A stretch of DNA of 41,497 bases from a virus (lineage: Duplodnaviria; Heunggongvirae; Uroviricota; Caudoviricetes): positions 128,001 through 169,497 of the IMG/VR virus record IMGVR_UViG_3300044675_001501. One strand, written 5' to 3'. The notes under the pieces were generated by a model. The model searched no databases and was not told the DNA's origin. It was given only the letters and a program-made list of their open reading frames with translations. Positions 32,626-41,405 of the stretch are shown here, in pieces (the first letter of the stretch is position 1; every line of letters starts with the position of its first letter). The position numbers and the translations under genes are program-made.

Positions 32626-33975
32626 TTAGCCAAAGAACGAGTCTAAGGTCGCCTCCTCAACTGGCTCAAAGTGGCTTTCCCACAGGTTATTGCCATTGGT
32701 AACTGCCCTTGGATCTCTGGTCAAAGAACCAGTGTCGTTCTCTGGATAATATCCAGCGTTCTTACCCATAGCCAAATCAACATACTGCTGGGCGATTATT
32801 CTTCTGTCGAACAGCTTGAGAACTTCATAGTTTCTCTGGACGATCTCTTGATACTTGTCCTCACTAATAGCCATGTAACAATTGATCATGTCGCCAAACT
32901 GTTTTGGCGTTGCGTCGTGAGGAATCATAAGATAGTTTTCATCAACCTTAAACAAGGTTCCGTTGCCATGCTCATGATCTGAAACTCCAAGATTTCTAGC
33001 AATAGGAACTACGCCAACTCGCATAGCATCTACGATAACACGATTAAAGTGTTCACCGTAAGTTGTAGTCCAAGAAGTGTCGATTAGAAACTTAGATTTC
33101 TTTAGAATACTATCACGCTTTTGCTCAGTGATGAATCCGATATAAGCCATATTTCCAGTAGCCATAGCATTATCCCAGATTTTCTTACCGATCATATCGT
33201 CAGTAGCATTAGGATCTTTTTCTTTGCTGCAGAAATATTCTGGCTTACACTTATCAGGAGAAGTCATATAAGCACGTTCCATACCATCACCAGCAACAAT
33301 AATCTTACCGTTGATATAAGGAACAGCAGCAACAAGTTCATCAACACGCTTCCATCTCTTAAATGTTTGTAGAGATAGAATTACGTTTTCTCTTTTATCC
33401 CATGCTCCTGGTGTCGGCAGAACTGTTAGATCCTGCGGATTAAGAATCATGTTTCTAGGAACAGGCATAAAGTCAGCAGACTTATACGCAGCTGGGTGAA
33501 CGCATGCGATACCAGAAAACTTATGAGAGAATTTATGGATCCAGCTGTATAGTTTCTTTAGATTACCGTCATGAATAATAACTACCTGTTTGGCAGTTAG
33601 TTCCTCAACCATTGGAATCCAGTCAGTAAACTTCTCAGTCTCTGAGTTCTTAAACCCGAAGATAGATTGCCAGATAACAATGTCATGCTTGTTAGCATCT
33701 TCAACAAACTTACGAATACTATTCTGGTTCTTAAGAGAATAGTATGGAGCAATCCAACCTTTACCTTGATGAACAGGAAATCCAGTTCCAGCACCAAACT
33801 CATAACCTTCTGGGCAAACAGTTGTATCTACTGGTCTAGGATCAGTTTGCGTTGGTTTAATATAAGCAAAAGTTACATCATGACCCAAGTCTTTCAGACC
33901 AGCAATCAATTGCTCATTATGATTAATGATACCTCCAAAATTATTGAAGGTATGCATGGGAATAAAAATCTTCAT
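32626..33975 (-). CDS. GT-B fold glycosyltransferase (GT4-like), probably DNA-modifying
   Basis: N-terminal FGGIINH...LKDLGHDV, KRWKRVD, VAGDG, EHFNRVIVDAM..G; C-terminal TLDSFFG clamp-type peptide. Confidence 0.8.
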   Translation of the reverse strand: MKIFIPMHTFNNFGGIINHNEQLIAGLKDLGHDVTFAYIKPTQTDPRPVDTTVCPEGYEFGAGTGFPVHQGKGWIAPYYSLKNQNSIRKFVEDANKHDIVIWQSIFGFKNSETEKFTDWIPMVEELTAKQVVIIHDGNLKKLYSWIHKFSHKFSGIACVHPAAYKSADFMPVPRNMILNPQDLTVLPTPGAWDKRENVILSLQTFKRWKRVDELVAAVPYINGKIIVAGDGMERAYMTSPDKCKPEYFCSKEKDPNATDDMIGKKIWDNAMATGNMAYIGFITEQKRDSILKKSKFLIDTSWTTTYGEHFNRVIVDAMRVGVVPIARNLGVSDHEHGNGTLFKVDENYLMIPHDATPKQFGDMINCYMAISEDKYQEIVQRNYEVLKLFDRRIIAQQYVDLAMGKNAGYYPENDTGSLTRDPRAVTNGNNLWESHFEPVEEATLDSFFG

Positions 33976-34382
33976 TCTGCTTTTACCCTTTGTCTCAGTT
34001 CTGTTGTAGAGAAAGTATGTTCACGCTTATTAAAGTATAACTCGATTCCTCTTTTAAGGCAAATTTCTTTCCCAGTAAAATCTTTGTTTTTGTATTCTTC
34101 ACCAAGAATTCTAATATTGATGTCAAGAATCTTCAGCAAATCTTCTAAGTCTTTCTCGGTTTGATAAACAATAATTTCATCAACCCATCTTACTGCCTTT
34201 AATTGTATGTAGCGTTCAACAATACTCTGAACAGGTTTGTTCTTGGTGTCTGGTCTGTCAATTGTTGGATCTGTTTGTAATCCAACAATCAACTTATCAC
34301 AATGCTTCGCTGCCTCAGCCAGCATAAGAATATGACCAGCATGAAGCAAATCAAATGTTGAGCAAGTAAATCCCTTCTTCAT
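33972..34382 (-). CDS. TagD-like (glycerol-3-phosphate) cytidylyltransferase
   Basis: TFDLLHAGH, LIVGLQTD, ERYIQL, RILGEEY, FSTTELR. Confidence 0.88.
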   Translation of the reverse strand: MKKGFTCSTFDLLHAGHILMLAEAAKHCDKLIVGLQTDPTIDRPDTKNKPVQSIVERYIQLKAVRWVDEIIVYQTEKDLEDLLKILDINIRILGEEYKNKDFTGKEICLKRGIELYFNKREHTFSTTELRQRVKAE

Positions 34383-35698
34383 GCGAAGAATTCCTCTAGT
34401 GAAGTTTTCTGCGACTCAGGATGATACTTAACGAGAGTATCCTGACCTAGTTTACTTCCAAGATAATCGTACCATTCCTGGCTAGACCACATTCCTGGAG
34501 AAACACCATTCCACAGTTTGCGCCATTCAGGATGCTCTTTGTTTGTTCTCCTACCCTCAACAAACTCATAACGAGCATCTTCATACTCTTTGCTACCAAG
34601 TTCAAGCATATTCTCACGAAGATATACAACAAGAGACACACGCTCTGAGCCTTCTTCACAAACGATAGGTGTATTACCATGAATAATCTCATGATTATTA
34701 ACAAGAAGCAAATCGCCTGGACGAACATTAACTGCTACTCTAATCTCTGGGAAGATAAGATAACCACCACTGTATCTACCATCATTAGATAAGGTCAACA
34801 GATTAGACATACCCTTGGTAAAGTCACCAGCATCTCTGTGCGCTGCTGTTCTGAAAGTTTTATTAACAGTAACAGTAGTAAATGGAGTTTTAGGAATAAC
34901 AAATCTAGAATCAATACTGTCAGTTGCTGCTTTCTGAGCAGCATATCTTTCAGGTAGCAGTTCTTTGAAACCTTTAGCAAGATGTTGTAAGAATGGATAT
35001 GCCATCTTAAACTTGTCAAAGTTATCACGAGTGTAAGTTGTTGCTCGACCATAGGGGATACGAGGATAACGATCGAACCAGCCAGCAATACCAGAGTCAA
35101 CTGGATTGCCATAAGAAGTTTCAGAAACCATCTTCATAGTTTCTTCAGTAGCCTTTGCTCGCTCTTCACGATTCAATGGCTTGATAGAATCAACCCACTC
35201 ATCAAAGTTAAACTTGCCACGGAAGCGAGAGATAACCCAAACATTATTCTTACCTGAACCCAATGCCTTCAGACGAGATTCTTCAGTAGGATATTTCGCA
35301 CGCAGAACATCAATAATATCTTCGTTTACGATAGCAGCATCTCTAGCATCAAGCAATCCCTGTAGAAGTTCTTCTTGATAATTAGTTACCCACTCACGAC
35401 CTTCGCCATTGACTGAAGTTCCTGCTTTAATACCTGAAGCAAGACCACGATTTTCAGTTCTGACTGCGGCATCTCGAAGTCCAGCATATGCTGCGTCTTG
35501 TTCTTCTTTGCCGAAGAAGTTCTTTCTAAACTTGAAAGCAATTCTAGATTCATCAACAACTGAATCAGCACCGAATGATGCTGGAAGATAACAATCCATA
35601 TCTTCTTCAACTAGAATGTCATAATGTTGCTCATCAAGAAACAAGCCAAGCAAATGCTCGCTCTCATAATATTTTGGTGCTACGTATACCTTTACCAT
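34379..35698 (-). CDS. TET/JBP-family 2OG-Fe(II) 5-methylpyrimidine dioxygenase
   Basis: PFTTVTVNKTFRTAAHRDAGD (HxD), HGNTPI, ERVSLVVYLRE (2OG-binding Arg): TET/JBP signature. Confidence 0.8.
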   Translation of the reverse strand: MVKVYVAPKYYESEHLLGLFLDEQHYDILVEEDMDCYLPASFGADSVVDESRIAFKFRKNFFGKEEQDAAYAGLRDAAVRTENRGLASGIKAGTSVNGEGREWVTNYQEELLQGLLDARDAAIVNEDIIDVLRAKYPTEESRLKALGSGKNNVWVISRFRGKFNFDEWVDSIKPLNREERAKATEETMKMVSETSYGNPVDSGIAGWFDRYPRIPYGRATTYTRDNFDKFKMAYPFLQHLAKGFKELLPERYAAQKAATDSIDSRFVIPKTPFTTVTVNKTFRTAAHRDAGDFTKGMSNLLTLSNDGRYSGGYLIFPEIRVAVNVRPGDLLLVNNHEIIHGNTPIVCEEGSERVSLVVYLRENMLELGSKEYEDARYEFVEGRRTNKEHPEWRKLWNGVSPGMWSSQEWYDYLGSKLGQDTLVKYHPESQKTSLEEFFA

Positions 35699-35709
35699 TT
35701 TATTCTCCG

Positions 35710-37098
35710 TTAAAATTGAAACCCTGACGCATCTATAGAGCTTCGTTTACCAAACTTACTTTTGTCGAATAATGGCGTATCATCTTGCTCACCAGAGTCA
35801 GCGATATCTTCCTGCGCTGACATCTCGACATTATATAACTTCATCTTAGACCTGTCAATACCAACAATGAATCTCTTATAATAATTTGGGTCACTATAAC
35901 GATTCTTCAACTGCTTGACCATAATCTGATTAAGTTGTTCCATTTCCTCAGTACTAATCAACGCAAACATAAAGTCAACTGTCGCTGGTAGACCAAACGA
36001 TTCAGAAGTATCTTCAAGTCCAGGATCACTGCTTGTGAAACCAGAACGAGTTGTTTGAGTTGCGCTGAGAATCGGAACATTATATTCAACCGCCAATCCT
36101 CGAATCTCTTCTGCGATGCTCTTGATATATGTATATGAATTAACATTTGACCCCTGACGAAGTCTTTGAGAAGCACAGATATTAAGATAGTCAATGACTA
36201 CCAAATCTGGAACAAACTCTCTCTTCATCTTGAGTTCTTCAAGCAAAGCACGGAAGTGACCAGAGTGCGCAGTTGCTGTTGGATATTCCTTGATGATAAG
36301 TTTACCTTTGGTCTTACTCGCAAGTTTAGCGACACGATTATCAAAGATATCTTTATCAATTGCTTTCAATTCATCCATGCTTAGGTTCAGCAAGTTACAA
36401 TCAATCCTCTCAGCGATGCGTTCTTCAGCCATCTCCATAGTTATGTATAGAACATTCAAATTCTGAAGTAACGCTTGAGCAGAAACGTGACACATAAACA
36501 AAGATTTACCAACACCTGTACCTGCCAATGCGACATTCAAGGTTTTCTTTGAAAGACCGCCCTTAGTGATTTTATTAAGGAGATCAATATCGAATGGTAT
36601 TTTCTCTTCAATCCTATGATAAAAATCATAGCGTTCATCTGAATTCTCAATATAGTCGTGACCGATATGATTATCAAATGAAACGGCAAGAGCATCAGAA
36701 AGAATAGATGGTATAGCATCTTTTGTGTGTGCAACATCACGACCCTCAATAATTTTGATTGAATCCATAATCGCCAGATACACCGCACGATCTTTACAGA
36801 ATTTTTCAGTGTGTTCAATTAACCAATCTTTATTGATTTCTTTCTGCTCTATCTCATGGATTGTTACCTGAAGATCAGCGTGCTCTTTATCCGTGATATC
36901 AGTTCTGTTAGAAACTTCGATACCAAGGATTTCTTTAGTAAGAGGTTTATTGAACTTGGAGAAGAACTGAACAATCGTTGAAATGATTATTCTTTCTTTC
37001 TTCTCCGCAAAGTATTGATCTTTTAAAAACGGTATAACTTTTCTGCAGTACTCTTCATCAAAAATCAAATTACTAATAATAGACTGCTCAATTCTCAT
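35710..37098 (-). CDS. gp41: Replicative DNA helicase (T4 gp41-like)
   Basis: LAGTGVGKS, ITMEMAEE, IIKEYPT, IDYLNIC, SATQTTR, TSESFGLPATVD, QLKNRY. Confidence 0.95.
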   Translation of the reverse strand: MRIEQSIISNLIFDEEYCRKVIPFLKDQYFAEKKERIIISTIVQFFSKFNKPLTKEILGIEVSNRTDITDKEHADLQVTIHEIEQKEINKDWLIEHTEKFCKDRAVYLAIMDSIKIIEGRDVAHTKDAIPSILSDALAVSFDNHIGHDYIENSDERYDFYHRIEEKIPFDIDLLNKITKGGLSKKTLNVALAGTGVGKSLFMCHVSAQALLQNLNVLYITMEMAEERIAERIDCNLLNLSMDELKAIDKDIFDNRVAKLASKTKGKLIIKEYPTATAHSGHFRALLEELKMKREFVPDLVVIDYLNICASQRLRQGSNVNSYTYIKSIAEEIRGLAVEYNVPILSATQTTRSGFTSSDPGLEDTSESFGLPATVDFMFALISTEEMEQLNQIMVKQLKNRYSDPNYYKRFIVGIDRSKMKLYNVEMSAQEDIADSGEQDDTPLFDKSKFGKRSSIDASGFQF

Positions 37099-37391
37099 TC
37101 AGTTCCACCTGTAAAGATAAGTTCTTTATGTTCGATTGCTTTCCGTATAACTTCAACGAGGATGTTTCCGATAGTGGTTTCGTATTCTTTCTTGGAATCT
37201 TCACCACCGCTATCGCCTTCTAAATGATTGTATTCAAAAGAAAGGATAGGTTCATTCTCATTAGGGAATTCTACCTTACCGAAGTTAAAAAGGCAACCAT
37301 TGAATTTGCCAGACAAGATTTTTATTTTGTAAAAACCATCTTCAGTCGCTTCTGGCAAAACTTCGTAGTCTTCAAACTCCTTCTGGCTCAT
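37095..37391 (-). CDS. Small acidic protein at the T4 gp40 syntenic position
   Basis: Lies between uvsX and gp41; the assignment rests on synteny only. Confidence 0.5.
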
Positions 37392-38430
37392 CTTCAAGTT
37401 CCTCATCTGTTACAACAACATCACTACCAAACTTGTATTTGACAGCACAATATTCATCAATGCGCTTCATAATATCTTCAGTGAAATATGTTGTTGGGTT
37501 TTCATTAATGTTCTTACCGAATAGTTTTTTACCATCTTCTAATTCAATACGACCACCTTGAGATTTCCAGATACCAGCTTCAACAGCAAGATCAAGCAAT
37601 CCATGATAACGATCTAGACCTGTACTAAAAGAAAGTTTAGTTTCAACCATAGATTGTTCTTTAGTGAACCTAGACTTCTCAAGTTTGCACTTGATAATGT
37701 TACCAATCACCTCAGTGCCATCCTTATCTTTAGATTTAGACAGGAACACGATAGTGGATGCTGCATACTTCAGACCATCACCACCGCCCATTGTCTTTGT
37801 TGGAACATATGCACCGACGACAGCGTAAGTATGGTTAGTAACAATCATTGCGATATCAAGTTTCGCCAACTTCAATGATAGAACACGGAACGCACCACGA
37901 ACAAGTTGAGCACGAGTCATATCACGAGTCTCTTTACCCTCAGCGATATCTTCCATCTCTTTAGTAGTTGAAAGCATACCCAATGAGTCAAGACACATCA
38001 GTAATGGTGGGCGACTATCTTTCTTTTCTTTCTCATACGCATCAAGAATCTTAGTAGCTTGAGTTCTAAATTCTTGAACTGTTGACACAGGAACAATAAC
38101 AAAACGGCGAGTGTCAATACCTCGCTCAGTTAACATATCCTTTGTTAACGCACCTTCAGTTTCAAAGTAAACAACACCTGCTTTTGGGTTACTGTTTAAG
38201 AAATGCTTACAGATACCAAGAGCATAGAAAGTTTTACCTGTTGATGATTCACCAGCAAGTGCTGTTACTTTGTTAGATGGCAAACCACCATGTATTGACC
38301 CTGAAAGCAGTGCATTAAAGGCATAACTACCAGTATCGATAAACCCAGCAGTGTCACCAACAACACCATCATCAGCAAGACCCGCATATTCATTATCTAA
38401 TTCCTTGACGATTGTCTTTAAAAAATCCAT
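37372..38430 (-). CDS. uvsX: RecA-like recombinase UvsX
   Basis: AGESSTGKT Walker [31 protein letters not shown]; GGAGG RBS. Confidence 0.95.
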
Positions 38431-38450
38431 AATATCCTCCAAATAATTTA

Positions 38451-38479
38451 ATTATACCGCTGGGTTGTGTATTTGTCAA
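38451..38479 (-). promoter_or_regulatory. Consensus sigma70 promoter upstream of uvsX
   Basis: TTGACA-N17-TATAAT. Confidence 0.9.
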
Positions 38480-38904
38480 TTGCACCAAGATGATTTTTTC
38501 TCTCCAAAGTATGGTCTTGCAAGACCAGCTGCAATTAACAACTCAGATAAACGCTTACCATCCAAGATTACATCACCCAAAACTCTACCACCAAACTTGT
38601 CATGCTCTTTTAGTTCGATTTGAATTTTCTTTGCTTCGGCAACTTGTTTCTTTGTAAAGGCAGTTGCCATTGCGCCCATCTTTGCTTCTTGCTCACACTG
38701 CGCACGTCCACCTTTTTCTGGTGTATCAACACCAAGAACACGAATAACCAATGTTGGTTTTAGTGGTGGTGGCATAAACTTTGCTTCGAACTCAACAGTG
38801 TCGCCATCAAGAACACGTGTTACTTTATAGTCATATGGGTTTGCCTTTGCTGGTAGAGTTAACACCAAGAAAAGAAATCCAACTGCTGCATAAAATTTAT
38901 TCAT
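38476..38904 (-). CDS. Thermonuclease (SNase-fold) with signal peptide
   Basis: RVLDGDTV, IRVLGVDTPE, DKFGGRVLG, GLA; signal peptide ending AKA. Confidence 0.88.
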   Translation of the reverse strand: MNKFYAAVGFLFLVLTLPAKANPYDYKVTRVLDGDTVEFEAKFMPPPLKPTLVIRVLGVDTPEKGGRAQCEQEAKMGAMATAFTKKQVAEAKKIQIELKEHDKFGGRVLGDVILDGKRLSELLIAAGLARPYFGEKKSSWCN

Positions 38905-38912
38905 ACCTACTC

Positions 38913-41405
38913 CTATTCGAAAAATGATTCAAGGGTGACTTGTTCTTCGACATGCCAACCCAAAGGTTCTATTACGTTTGACAGAGGATCAAGGAAAACC
39001 TTTTCAAACTGTTTATCGTAATCAATATACTTATGTAAATTTAGATCACGAGGTAAAGTTCCCAAGAAAGAAATAACATCTTCATTGATTGGGTTTGGTG
39101 TTTTCAAATAAACAAACTTAATCTTCTCTCCGTCTTTAATAAGCTGGTGTATGTGTGTAAGTTTCTTCTGTTTAATATAATGATTATAAAGCAACGCTCC
39201 CCTCACATGAATCGGTGTTGACTTAGCATAGACAGAGCTGGTTCCTGCATATGTTTTAATTCCATTCACACCACGTGGGAAAGCAATCTCTTCAACAGAC
39301 ATATTATTAAACTCTTCTCGGAAATCCATAACATACTTATGTAGTATAGATTCATCACCAGCAAGAATAACTTTAATAGAGTCTTTTAATTTATCACGAA
39401 TAACAGCTGGGGTTGAAGATTTAACCATCTCAAGTCCCATGACTTTAATCTTCGGCTCAGCATATTGAACACCCTCAGAGTTATGCACATTCAATATGTA
39501 GCGTTTCTTTGCAGTCCAGATACCTTTATCCGCAAGAACTTCACGCTTCATCTGCATCTTCTGCGAATAAGCATTCATCATAGATGCTAGTTCATTATAA
39601 CATCCATCAATAAATGGTTGAACCTTGTCTTCACAGAAACGATCCATAAAACTAATCGTCTTATCGACAGGATGATCTGGGTAATATGTGTCAACAAGTT
39701 TCTCAAATGTGACATAGATAGAATCGGTGTCAACTGCAATAATATAATCAGCATCTTTAGTCTTTAGAACTTTGTTCATAAACGCATTCATCTTGTCATG
39801 AATCCAGCGAATAGACAGCTGTCCCGAAGTCGTAATACCTTCAGCCATGCGAATATCAAAGTAGCGAAAATATTGGTTACCCATCGCACCATAAGCGGAG
39901 TTCAACGCAATCTTCATAGCCATCTGCAGATTATTCAGACGAGAGATTTCTTTCAGCAAAGATTTCTCTTTGGTCTTCTCATACTCTTGCTGAACTTTCA
40001 ACATCTGTTTCTTAAACTTGCTTCGGTTAGCATACATTTCTTCCATCAATGCTGGCATAAAACCTTGCTTGCTCTTATCATAGCAAACACCATTAGCAGT
40101 CATTGTTAGATCGCGATCGATAAGCATCTGAGTATCAACAGTACCAGCAAGAAGTCGCTCAACATTAGTTTGAACTCTGCCAGGTTTGAGAGTCTCAGGC
40201 GAAATGTTATACTGCATAATCAAGTGCGGATATAGCGAGTTCAAGTCAAAAGACACGACCCACTTATGTAGACCAAGCAAAGGATCTTTAACATACGCAC
40301 CTTCAAACGCAGAGTCTTTCTTATTACCACTGTTAGGTGGGATAACAATGTTCTTATCACGCAAATGATTATAGATGATTGCGTCCCACATACGAACCTG
40401 ACTGAAGACATCTACGTAATTGATCTTAGCGTTATACGCCATAGTCAATTGAAGTTCAATCAAGCGCATCTTATCTTCTAGTTTGTCAACTAGACGAACG
40501 TCATGAATGTTATATTCTACGAACTCATTCCAGTAATTTGTGTAGAAATCTTTGAAGGAATCGCCAGGATTTTCTTTCTTCTTCTCGCCGAGTTCAATGT
40601 ATGCGATATGATCAAGTTTATATGATTCTTGAGCAGAGTAAGTATATTTGCGATAGAGGTCAAGATAGTCAAGAGAACTGATGCCAGCGATGTCGTAGCT
40701 AATTTCTTCAACACCCTTAACAACAATTCTGCGTTCATTGATAAGTCCCCAAGGAGAAATCTTTTTAGCCTGCGCTTCTCCTAGAACATTAATAATTCTG
40801 CGGATGAGATAAGGAACGTCAAAGAACTCGATGTTCCAACCAGTGATAACATCAGGTGGACTTAGACGCCAGAAAGAAAGGAACTCCCTCAGTAGATGTT
40901 CCTCGCTCTTACACTGAATATATTTAATCTTATGATCAAGACCAAGTACAGGTCCAACACCGAAGGTTGTTATTTCTTTTGTGTTATTATCTTGAACAGT
41001 AATTAGAAGAAGTTCTTCATTGGCTGTTTCCATGTTAGGAAAGCCATCTTCAGTTTTAGTTTCAATGTCAATAGAATAGATCTTGATTAGTTCACGATCC
41101 CATCTAACTTCACCCTGATGCGTGTCGCTGATATATTGTGCGACATAGTTTGTGTTTCCGTAGATTGGGAAACCTTCAATGTCTTTATATTGATCAATAA
41201 AATCTCTGGTGTCTCTGATAGATCCAGGTTTGACTGGATAAACAAGAGTTCCCTCAAGAGTTTTATGTGGTGACTGCTTTTCCTTAGAGGAAGTTACAAA
41301 CACTGTTGGTTGAAAGTCAACCTTGAAAGAAACAGGGTTGTTACCATCGTACCCACGAACGAGTAGATTATTTCCCTGCATGTAAACATTAGTATAGAAA
41401 TCCAA
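38913..41405 (-). CDS. gp43: Family B DNA polymerase (T4 gp43-like)
   Basis: DIET exonuclease motif, DLNSLYP, KIALNSAYG, DTDS, KKRY; TTG start; C-terminal TLESFFE. Confidence 0.97.
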   Translation of the reverse strand: MDFYTNVYMQGNNLLVRGYDGNNPVSFKVDFQPTVFVTSSKEKQSPHKTLEGTLVYPVKPGSIRDTRDFIDQYKDIEGFPIYGNTNYVAQYISDTHQGEVRWDRELIKIYSIDIETKTEDGFPNMETANEELLLITVQDNNTKEITTFGVGPVLGLDHKIKYIQCKSEEHLLREFLSFWRLSPPDVITGWNIEFFDVPYLIRRIINVLGEAQAKKISPWGLINERRIVVKGVEEISYDIAGISSLDYLDLYRKYTYSAQESYKLDHIAYIELGEKKKENPGDSFKDFYTNYWNEFVEYNIHDVRLVDKLEDKMRLIELQLTMAYNAKINYVDVFSQVRMWDAIIYNHLRDKNIVIPPNSGNKKDSAFEGAYVKDPLLGLHKWVVSFDLNSLYPHLIMQYNISPETLKPGRVQTNVERLLAGTVDTQMLIDRDLTMTANGVCYDKSKQGFMPALMEEMYANRSKFKKQMLKVQQEYEKTKEKSLLKEISRLNNLQMAMKIALNSAYGAMGNQYFRYFDIRMAEGITTSGQLSIRWIHDKMNAFMNKVLKTKDADYIIAVDTDSIYVTFEKLVDTYYPDHPVDKTISFMDRFCEDKVQPFIDGCYNELASMMNAYSQKMQMKREVLADKGIWTAKKRYILNVHNSEGVQYAEPKIKVMGLEMVKSSTPAVIRDKLKDSIKVILAGDESILHKYVMDFREEFNNMSVEEIAFPRGVNGIKTYAGTSSVYAKSTPIHVRGALLYNHYIKQKKLTHIHQLIKDGEKIKFVYLKTPNPINEDVISFLGTLPRDLNLHKYIDYDKQFEKVFLDPLSNVIEPLGWHVEEQVTLESFFE

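Follow-up and report, generated by a model that had tools for sequence, protein, structure and literature searches.

A predicted sliding-clamp docking peptide at the C-termini of the DNA polymerase, a Tet/JBP dioxygenase and a glycosyltransferase of a T4-like phage

Background

Post-replicative hypermodification shields phage DNA against restriction enzymes and CRISPR. By what means the enzymes of such pathways find phage DNA only, and why post-replicative routes exist, has been stated as an open question (PMC13229309). A locus of a distant T4-like phage suggests a possible answer. It lies in the final 41.5 kb (positions 128,001 to 169,497; hereafter the window) of the 169,497-bp IMG/VR virus record IMGVR_UViG_3300044675_001501, which CheckV rates as complete. 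Here a Tet/JBP-family DNA-base dioxygenase and a glycosyltransferase, both encoded within the replication module, end in the same type of short peptide as the phage DNA polymerase. Reading this peptide from its sequence, we consider it probable that the tails of the two enzymes are clamp-docking peptides, tethering a pathway from thymine through 5-hydroxymethyluracil (5hmU) to a glycosylated base to newly replicated DNA.

Three proteins of the genome share a C-terminal peptide

The genes of the locus are all on the minus strand, in the order gp43 polymerase, SNase-family nuclease, UvsX, a 103-amino acid (aa) protein, gp41 helicase, Tet_JBP dioxygenase, a 136-aa nucleotidyltransferase and a GT1-family glycosyltransferase. 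At both junctions among the last three genes, the neighbouring reading frames share 4 nt. When the phage collection was searched with the nucleotide sequence, only remote cyanophage helicase matches came up. The features under study, with the ends of their open reading frames (ORFs), are as follows.

38913..41405, minus strand: gp43-type family B DNA polymerase (Pfam DNA_pol_B and DNA_pol_B_exo1; alignment with T4 gp43)
38916..38936, minus strand: polymerase C-terminal tail TLESFFE (ORF ends QVTLESFFE, stop codon at 38913-38915)
34379..35698, minus strand: Tet/JBP-family Fe(II)/2-oxoglutarate (2OG) DNA-base dioxygenase (5mYOX), long form, 439 aa (PF12851, phrog_24024)
34382..34402, minus strand: dioxygenase C-terminal tail SLEEFFA (ORF ends KTSLEEFFA, stop codon at 34379-34381)
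33972..34382, minus strand: small HIGH-motif nucleotidyltransferase, 136 aa, tail-less (PF01467; presumed maker of the activated donor)
32626..33975, minus strand: GT-B (GT4-like) glycosyltransferase, 449 aa (PF00534; AlphaFold2 model)
32629..32649, minus strand: glycosyltransferase C-terminal tail TLDSFFG (ORF ends EATLDSFFG, stop codon at 32626-32628)

The polymerase is 830 aa long from a TTG start, or 822 aa if an ATG 8 codons downstream is used.

The initial annotation had pointed to matching C-termini of the polymerase, the dioxygenase and the glycosyltransferase, and this is borne out: TLESFFE, SLEEFFA and TLDSFFG are each followed directly by a stop codon. Counted over all 193 non-overlapping ORFs of the genome (52,050 aa), the motif [ST]L[DE]xFF has exactly three occurrences, each spanning positions -7 to -2 from the C-terminus. 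Chance would give about 5e-4 C-terminal matches, and at least two besides the polymerase would arise with a probability of 1.3e-7. The codons for the leucine, phenylalanine and acidic residues differ among the three tails, their stop codons are TAG, TGA and TAA, and the downstream DNA is unrelated, which argues for selection on the peptide and not for a repeated DNA element. Across homologs, the tail leucine is written with all six leucine codons.

A relaxed version of the motif also catches gp55 (ending SNSLEDLIKGEE), a match that we judged plausible, as well as several small ORFs overlapping real genes, which were taken as false positives. A head-tail adaptor ending PLEFFMG (C1:29802-30557, minus strand; locus L089:1803-2549; phrog_211, E-value = 4e-42) resembles T4 LDFLFG. 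This adaptor being a structural protein, its ending was set aside as a chance match to the relaxed pattern.

Correspondence with the gp45-binding epitope of T4

The C-terminal motifs of T4 gp43, gp55 and gp33 are short, hydrophobic and acidic, bind gp45 and are freely interchangeable behind divergent linkers of variable length; these clamp partners have one epitope in common and compete for gp45 (PMC2988020). T4 gp43 ends EEKASLDFLFG, with the epitope SLDFLFG, and T4 gp55 ends SPSLDFLYEAND (SLDFLYEAND). The window polymerase aligns over its whole length with T4 gp43 (PDB 9e5y, E-value = 4e-134), with '...eeqvtlesff' against '...eekasldflf'. Since this alignment reaches the last residues, TLESFFE sits at the position of the T4 epitope.

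The phage encodes its own gp45 (C1:4497-5159, minus strand) adjoining the clamp loader, with a full-length match to RB69 gp45 (1b77/1b8h, E-value = 2e-26). This gp45 was identified by PF09116; a search with PF02916 (gp45 N-terminal domain) gave no match, its controls being uninformative. Looser versions of the tail end two further proteins of the genome, gp55 (SLEDLIKGEE) and a gp33 homolog (SATLDV; PF16805, E-value = 1e-18). The dioxygenase and glycosyltransferase tails are nearest to the polymerase version rather than to these. Three features of the gp45-epitope class can be read from the sequence: a SLDFLF-type peptide at the extreme C-terminus, a divergent flexible linker, and a cognate gp45 together with the polymerase motif.

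Conservation of the tail in related phages

A scan of IMG/VR yielded 80 loci with dioxygenase homologs (54-80% identity). The dioxygenase tail, or an LF, FL or FW variant of it, is kept in about 70 of these 80 loci. A tail of the same type ends all 39 polymerase homologs of the related loci and 20 of 22 glycosyltransferase homologs. It is consistently missing from UvsX, gp41, the SNase-family nuclease and neighbouring proteins of no assigned function. In the dioxygenase alignment a conserved KYHPEA element is separated from the tail by 3-6 residues that differ among homologs in both sequence and number. The information content reaches 3.6-3.9 bits at the leucine and about 3.0 bits at the aspartate/glutamate position, against 1.3-2.1 bits in the linker. 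The tails are thus kept behind a variable linker in relatives, which agrees with a clamp-docking peptide.

Larger collections exhibit the same pattern. Among the best 120 glycosyltransferase homologs (56-100% identity) from a collection of 5.8 billion proteins, about 119 have the tail: 114 by the pattern, 4 with phenylalanine in place of leucine, and 1 with the motif plus five extra residues, as in gp55. The remaining homolog is truncated. For the dioxygenase family, an exhaustive search of 1.84 billion representatives was made and 150 family representatives were compared; the tail is present in about 21 of the 26 nearest long-form relatives, which reach down to about 39% identity, versus 3 of the 124 others, mostly short forms.

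Other tail carriers and the association with gp45

The other ORFs with a strict tail in the related loci belong to two families adjoining the dioxygenase, namely TET-associated glycosyltransferases (TAGT, PF20691) and amino acid:DNA transferases (ADDT, PF18724). The arrangement is also carried by two cultured phages. Stenotrophomonas phage DLP6 exhibits FF tails on its polymerase (ATLDSFFA), dioxygenase (ATLGDFFV) and TAGT (SDLSSFFN). Caulobacter phage Cr30 exhibits LF tails on its polymerase (ADLSSLFD), dioxygenase (GATLF) and a weak, sub-threshold TAGT-like protein (SDLSKLF). In another T4-like contig, tails are found on the dioxygenase (HLDEFF), TAGT (DLSDFF) and gp33 (NLDAF), and are missing from the NTP-transferase, gp32, ribonucleotide reductase and RNA ligase. 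Judged from these sequences, four unrelated families of DNA-acting enzymes have acquired the same ending, and the soluble donor-making enzymes have not.

The dioxygenase tail was compared with the presence of gp45 in eight phages:

Window phage: gp45 present; dioxygenase tail SLEEFFA
DLP6: gp45 present; dioxygenase tail ATLGDFFV
Cr30: gp45 present; dioxygenase tail GATLF (short LF form)
C48C1: gp45 present; dioxygenase tail ISLEEFFV
Melnitz: gp45 present; dioxygenase tail NLNDFLGE (variant)
S-CBWM1: no gp45 detected; no dioxygenase tail
Pelagibacter HTVC112P (short form beside ParB): no gp45 detected; no dioxygenase tail
Nonlabens P12024L: no gp45 detected; no dioxygenase tail

The tail tracks gp45 in all eight, five with and three without (Fisher p = 0.018).

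Two of these phages deserve a further remark. In Methylophilales phage Melnitz (L093:749-6886) the gene order is polymerase, C5-methyltransferase, a short TET homolog and a 427-aa protein. Tails close the polymerase (TLEDFFG) and the TET homolog (NLNDFLGE), but neither the methyltransferase nor the 427-aa protein has one. The tail is confined here to some enzymes of a single pathway. The siphovirus P12024L (L085:3815-6080; see also L096:3134-4759) has neither gp45 nor a T4-type polymerase. NSNQLEIF is the ending of its TAGT (NQTQLF in a relative), and QSQQTLF that of its N6/N4 DNA methylase. The bacterial beta-clamp motif is QL[SD]LF. The C-terminal Q-x-x-[LI]-F of P12024L, for which only two relatives were found, resembles this motif and might be the equivalent of the gp45 tail for a host clamp.

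Identity and probable substrate of the dioxygenase

The dioxygenase belongs to the Tet/JBP family. It matches PF12851 (E-value = 1.8e-24, 86.2 bits against a cut-off of 34.9) and phrog_24024 (E-value = 3e-144). The HxD...H iron triad and the 2OG-binding arginine (H286, D288, H339 and R352) are invariant in 33 homologs. Its AlphaFold2 model (pLDDT 79.5, pTM 0.70) is most similar in Foldseek to CcTet (8jkk), NgTET1 (5cg9) and TET2 (7ne6), with E-values of about 1e-9, and CMD1 is matched too; all share the double-stranded beta-helix fold. The last 8 residues of the model have a pLDDT of about 54. Such low confidence, also seen at the end of the glycosyltransferase model, is as expected for an exposed linear motif.

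Neither a C5-methyltransferase, a ThyA-type hydroxymethylase nor ParB was found in the complete genome. O'Toole et al. (2026) reported that only 6% of phage 5mYOX pathways have a C5-methyltransferase, most pathways being inferred to make 5hmU (PMC13229309). By this logic, since the genome has no C5-methyltransferase, thymine would be a likelier substrate than 5-methylcytosine.

Glycosyltransferase and nucleotidyltransferase

The glycosyltransferase matches PF00534 (31.2 bits against a cut-off of 26.4). In the Pfam scan only PF00534 and PF13692 were reported, with no match to PF11440 (T4 alpha-glucosyltransferase, alpha-GT), PF09198 (T4 beta-GT) or PF20691 (TAGT). Its AlphaFold2 model (pLDDT 77.6, pTM 0.80; last eight residues about 52-54) matches PimA, HepE and BshA in Foldseek (E-value of about 1e-11), that is, GT4-type GT-B enzymes with two Rossmann domains. 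A fold likeness to known DNA glycosyltransferases was considered and rejected, the fold search giving generic GT4 enzymes instead. Given this result, the assignment of a DNA acceptor rests on gene context and the tail: we infer that the enzyme acts on DNA from its tail, from its translational coupling to the dioxygenase, and from the finding of a Tet_JBP gene directly upstream of divergent glycosyltransferase homologs in all 3 look-ups begun from the glycosyltransferase. The protein search with the glycosyltransferase found no cultured phage.

The initial annotation had described the small enzyme between the dioxygenase and the glycosyltransferase as a cytidylyltransferase without the tail. 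The missing tail is confirmed (the protein ends RQRVKAE before its stop codon); the enzyme name is not, cytidylyltransferase being only the name of the Pfam family (PF01467, E-value = 6e-15; phrog_7878, E-value = 3e-36). The best matches, both below the cut-offs, are to heptose-1-phosphate adenylyltransferase (TIGR02199, rfaE_dom_II, E-value = 2e-23), followed by TagD (TIGR01518, E-value = 1e-15). The enzyme is presumed to supply an activated donor. It is not conserved in the related loci, where other genes take its place.

In Synechococcus phage S-CBWM1 (L092:6058-7139), two genes come after the dioxygenase homolog, one annotated as phosphoheptose isomerase and the other a sugar-1-phosphate nucleotidyltransferase. 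Together with the nucleotidyltransferase match, these neighbours hint that heptose may be the DNA sugar in some such pathways. In many relatives, the place of the nucleotidyltransferase between the dioxygenase and the glycosyltransferase is held by a conserved protein with no Pfam match and no clamp tail:

L012:11530-12357, plus strand: 276-282-aa conserved protein (also in L007, L018, L029, L030 and L105:5002-5850)

A probable clamp-tethered pathway and its alternatives

From the tail sequences we infer that the dioxygenase and the glycosyltransferase would each dock on trimeric gp45, through a tail of the same class as polymerase TLESFFE. The gp45 clamp would be loaded solely on replicating or nicked phage DNA. 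There the dioxygenase would oxidise a 5-methylpyrimidine of the newly made duplex, most likely thymine to 5hmU. To the product the glycosyltransferase would then attach a sugar, drawing on a nucleotide-activated donor made with the help of the small nucleotidyltransferase, the enzyme without a tail.

The initial annotation had read the tails as gp45-docking peptides acting at the fork. The docking part agrees with every in-silico test made: the alignment with T4 gp43, the encoded gp45, the conservation of the tails, the TAGT and ADDT carriers and the phyletic split of eight phages out of eight all point to it. As for the place of action, the sequence does not tell the fork from clamps left behind on replicated DNA.

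Several observations weigh against this proposal. The dioxygenase tail is lost or degraded in some lineages (L021, L041 and L044-L048), and two long-form dioxygenase relatives are without it; lineages of this kind indicate that the tail is not indispensable. In L044-L048, the adjacent TAGT retains its tail despite the loss from the dioxygenase. The tail is likewise missing from the ADDT of Cr30 and the C5-methyltransferase of Melnitz. The dioxygenase linker is only 3-6 residues long, as against about 17 in T4 gp55. The generic GT4 fold of the glycosyltransferase is by itself no sign of a DNA acceptor. In T4, the ratio of alpha to beta glucosylation is ascribed mainly to expression and enzyme activity, not to clamp affinity (PMC13216743). 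The sample of eight phages is small and phylogenetically non-independent, and a very divergent clamp could be missed in it. Within genomes, the polymerase, dioxygenase and glycosyltransferase tails co-vary only weakly, a trend that ancestry confounds (p = 0.055, 0.18 and 0.025) and that is not used as evidence here.

Some of these points would suit a different role of the same interaction. The tails might bind gp45 but regulate the availability of the clamp, in competition with the polymerase or the late sigma factor; or they might time the activity of the enzymes, catalysis itself being clamp-independent. That the T4 partners compete for a common epitope, that the clamp affinity of T4 alpha-GT is not the main determinant of glucosylation ratios, and that some lineages manage without the tail would all be in keeping with regulation. 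However, the tail is found on four unrelated DNA-modifying families and never on the nucleotidyltransferases of the same pathways. Given this distribution of carriers, tethering to the substrate fits better, and we regard a purely regulatory role as unlikely.

Clamp binding being read from sequence, the shared tail might instead bind another replication partner (gp32, the clamp loader or the helicase), or join the three proteins together. The conserved C-terminal tails that gp41 and UvsX have of their own imply several tail codes in the module, which gives this idea some appeal. It seems quite improbable in view of the polymerase tail, whose position makes it homologous to the epitope by which T4 gp43 binds gp45, of the related tails on gp55 and gp33, the other known gp45 clients, and of the absence of the tail where gp45 is missing. 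A stability or degradation signal common to early proteins is very improbable: hydrophobic C-terminal tails can serve as protease tags in bacteria, but among the 193 ORFs this tail is limited to the polymerase and the DNA-modifying enzymes, and it lines up in register with the established clamp epitope. We rejected, as having practically no likelihood, both a resemblance by chance and a DNA element conserved across the three gene ends (promoter, terminator or recombination site), given the motif statistics (P of about 1e-7), the differing codons, stops and flanks, and the six leucine codons used across homologs.

Tethering to gp45 is thus the reading that we favour for the window phage. A wider version of it is more tentative, and we hold it as a possibility of somewhat less than even weight: the gp45 clamp would be a general loading platform for post-replicative hypermodification in T4-like phages, the dioxygenases, the GT4-type and TAGT glycosyltransferases and ADDT having each acquired the polymerase peptide. 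By analogy, gp45 may serve these dioxygenases as the ParB clamp serves ParB-dependent ones.

Relation to known systems

Clamp-binding tails, the clamp as a 'tool-belt', the recruitment of DNMT1 by PCNA and the association of T4 alpha-GT with gp45 are already known. Our literature searches found no published account of polymerase-type clamp tails on phage Tet/JBP (5mYOX) dioxygenases or their partner transferases. In the literature on phage TET, T-dioxygenases, DNA glycosyltransferases and hypermodification, the clamp comes up solely as a gene nearby or with the meaning it has for ParB.

One parallel is with the epitopes of T4/RB69 gp43, gp55 and gp33 (RB69 complex 1B8H), which likewise consist of [ST]-L-[DE]-x-hydrophobic-F-x at the extreme C-terminus, behind a variable linker and with a cognate gp45 in the genome. 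Here, in contrast, the carriers are a dioxygenase and a glycosyltransferase (TAGT and ADDT in relatives) instead of replication and transcription proteins, the hydrophobic pair is FF instead of LF, and the tail sits behind a shorter linker.

The nearest precedent is T4 alpha-GT. It co-purifies with gp45 (PMC13216743), and the interaction of Sommer et al. (2004) is cited and reconfirmed there. It is a phage DNA glycosyltransferase in physical association with the sliding clamp, as is predicted for the window enzyme, and it has been proposed to modify DNA together with replication (PMC13216743). However, it lacks a polymerase-type tail (ending FDIITK) and belongs to a different glycosyltransferase family; its substrate, 5-hydroxymethylcytosine, is made ahead of replication, without any dioxygenase taking part.

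The ParB-dependent phage thymine dioxygenases (5mYOX; PMC13229309) belong to the same superfamily and need or use a DNA-bound partner. The ParB homologs are also DNA sliding clamps, and the short, ParB-linked form of HTVC112P is without the tail. In contrast, the window genome has no ParB, and the partner proposed here is the replication clamp, reached via a C-terminal peptide.

In eukaryotes, the PIP box of DNMT1 is a clamp-binding peptide that recruits a DNA-modifying enzyme to newly replicated DNA (PMC9690074), although the clamp is a different one (PCNA), the box is internal, the chemistry is methylation and the purpose is the maintenance of epigenetic marks. The trypanosome base J pathway (JBP1/2 and a glucosyltransferase) has the probable chemistry in common with the window pathway, namely oxidation of thymine in DNA by Tet/JBP enzymes to 5hmU followed by glycosylation. 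It differs in having no known clamp tether; the substrate and sugar of the window pathway are predicted ones.

If the tails dock on gp45, a clamp loaded by the phage's own replisome would deliver the enzymes, giving a simple answer to the question of how phage DNA is targeted. On the wider, platform version, modification would be confined to replicating phage DNA, and it would become understandable that certain phage 5mYOX enzymes without ParB are inactive when produced on their own in E. coli. With delivery by the clamp, such enzymes would be expected to need gp45 and the clamp loader to be fully active, be it in vitro or in a heterologous host, which is relevant to the characterisation of 5mYOX enzymes and DNA glycosyltransferases and to their use as tools. 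Furthermore, the tail would be a sequence signature for spotting DNA-acting enzymes among the generic 'cell-wall' glycosyltransferase annotations of T4-like phages.

Other features of the replication module

A promoter-like site precedes the dioxygenase gene:

35830..35858, minus strand: sigma-70-type promoter-like site, 12/12 consensus (located in the 3' end of the gp41 helicase gene, with the dioxygenase start about 130 nt downstream)

Another such site with a 12/12 match lies upstream of uvsX (38451-38479, minus strand). Both are consensus matches only, and the regional total of such sites is not above chance.

The SNase-family nuclease gene (38476-38904, minus strand) lies between polymerase and UvsX. 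The N-terminus of its product resembles a signal peptide (MNKFYAAVGFLFLVLTLPAKA), and homologs are found in eight related loci with a conserved ending ...SWC[NKD]. The gp41 helicase (35710-37098, minus strand) ends DASGFQF, and its C-terminal F-x-G-F-[KQN]-[FV] is kept by homologs in 62 related loci. This C-terminus is a second conserved tail code of the replication module, and may make contact with the helicase loader or primase.

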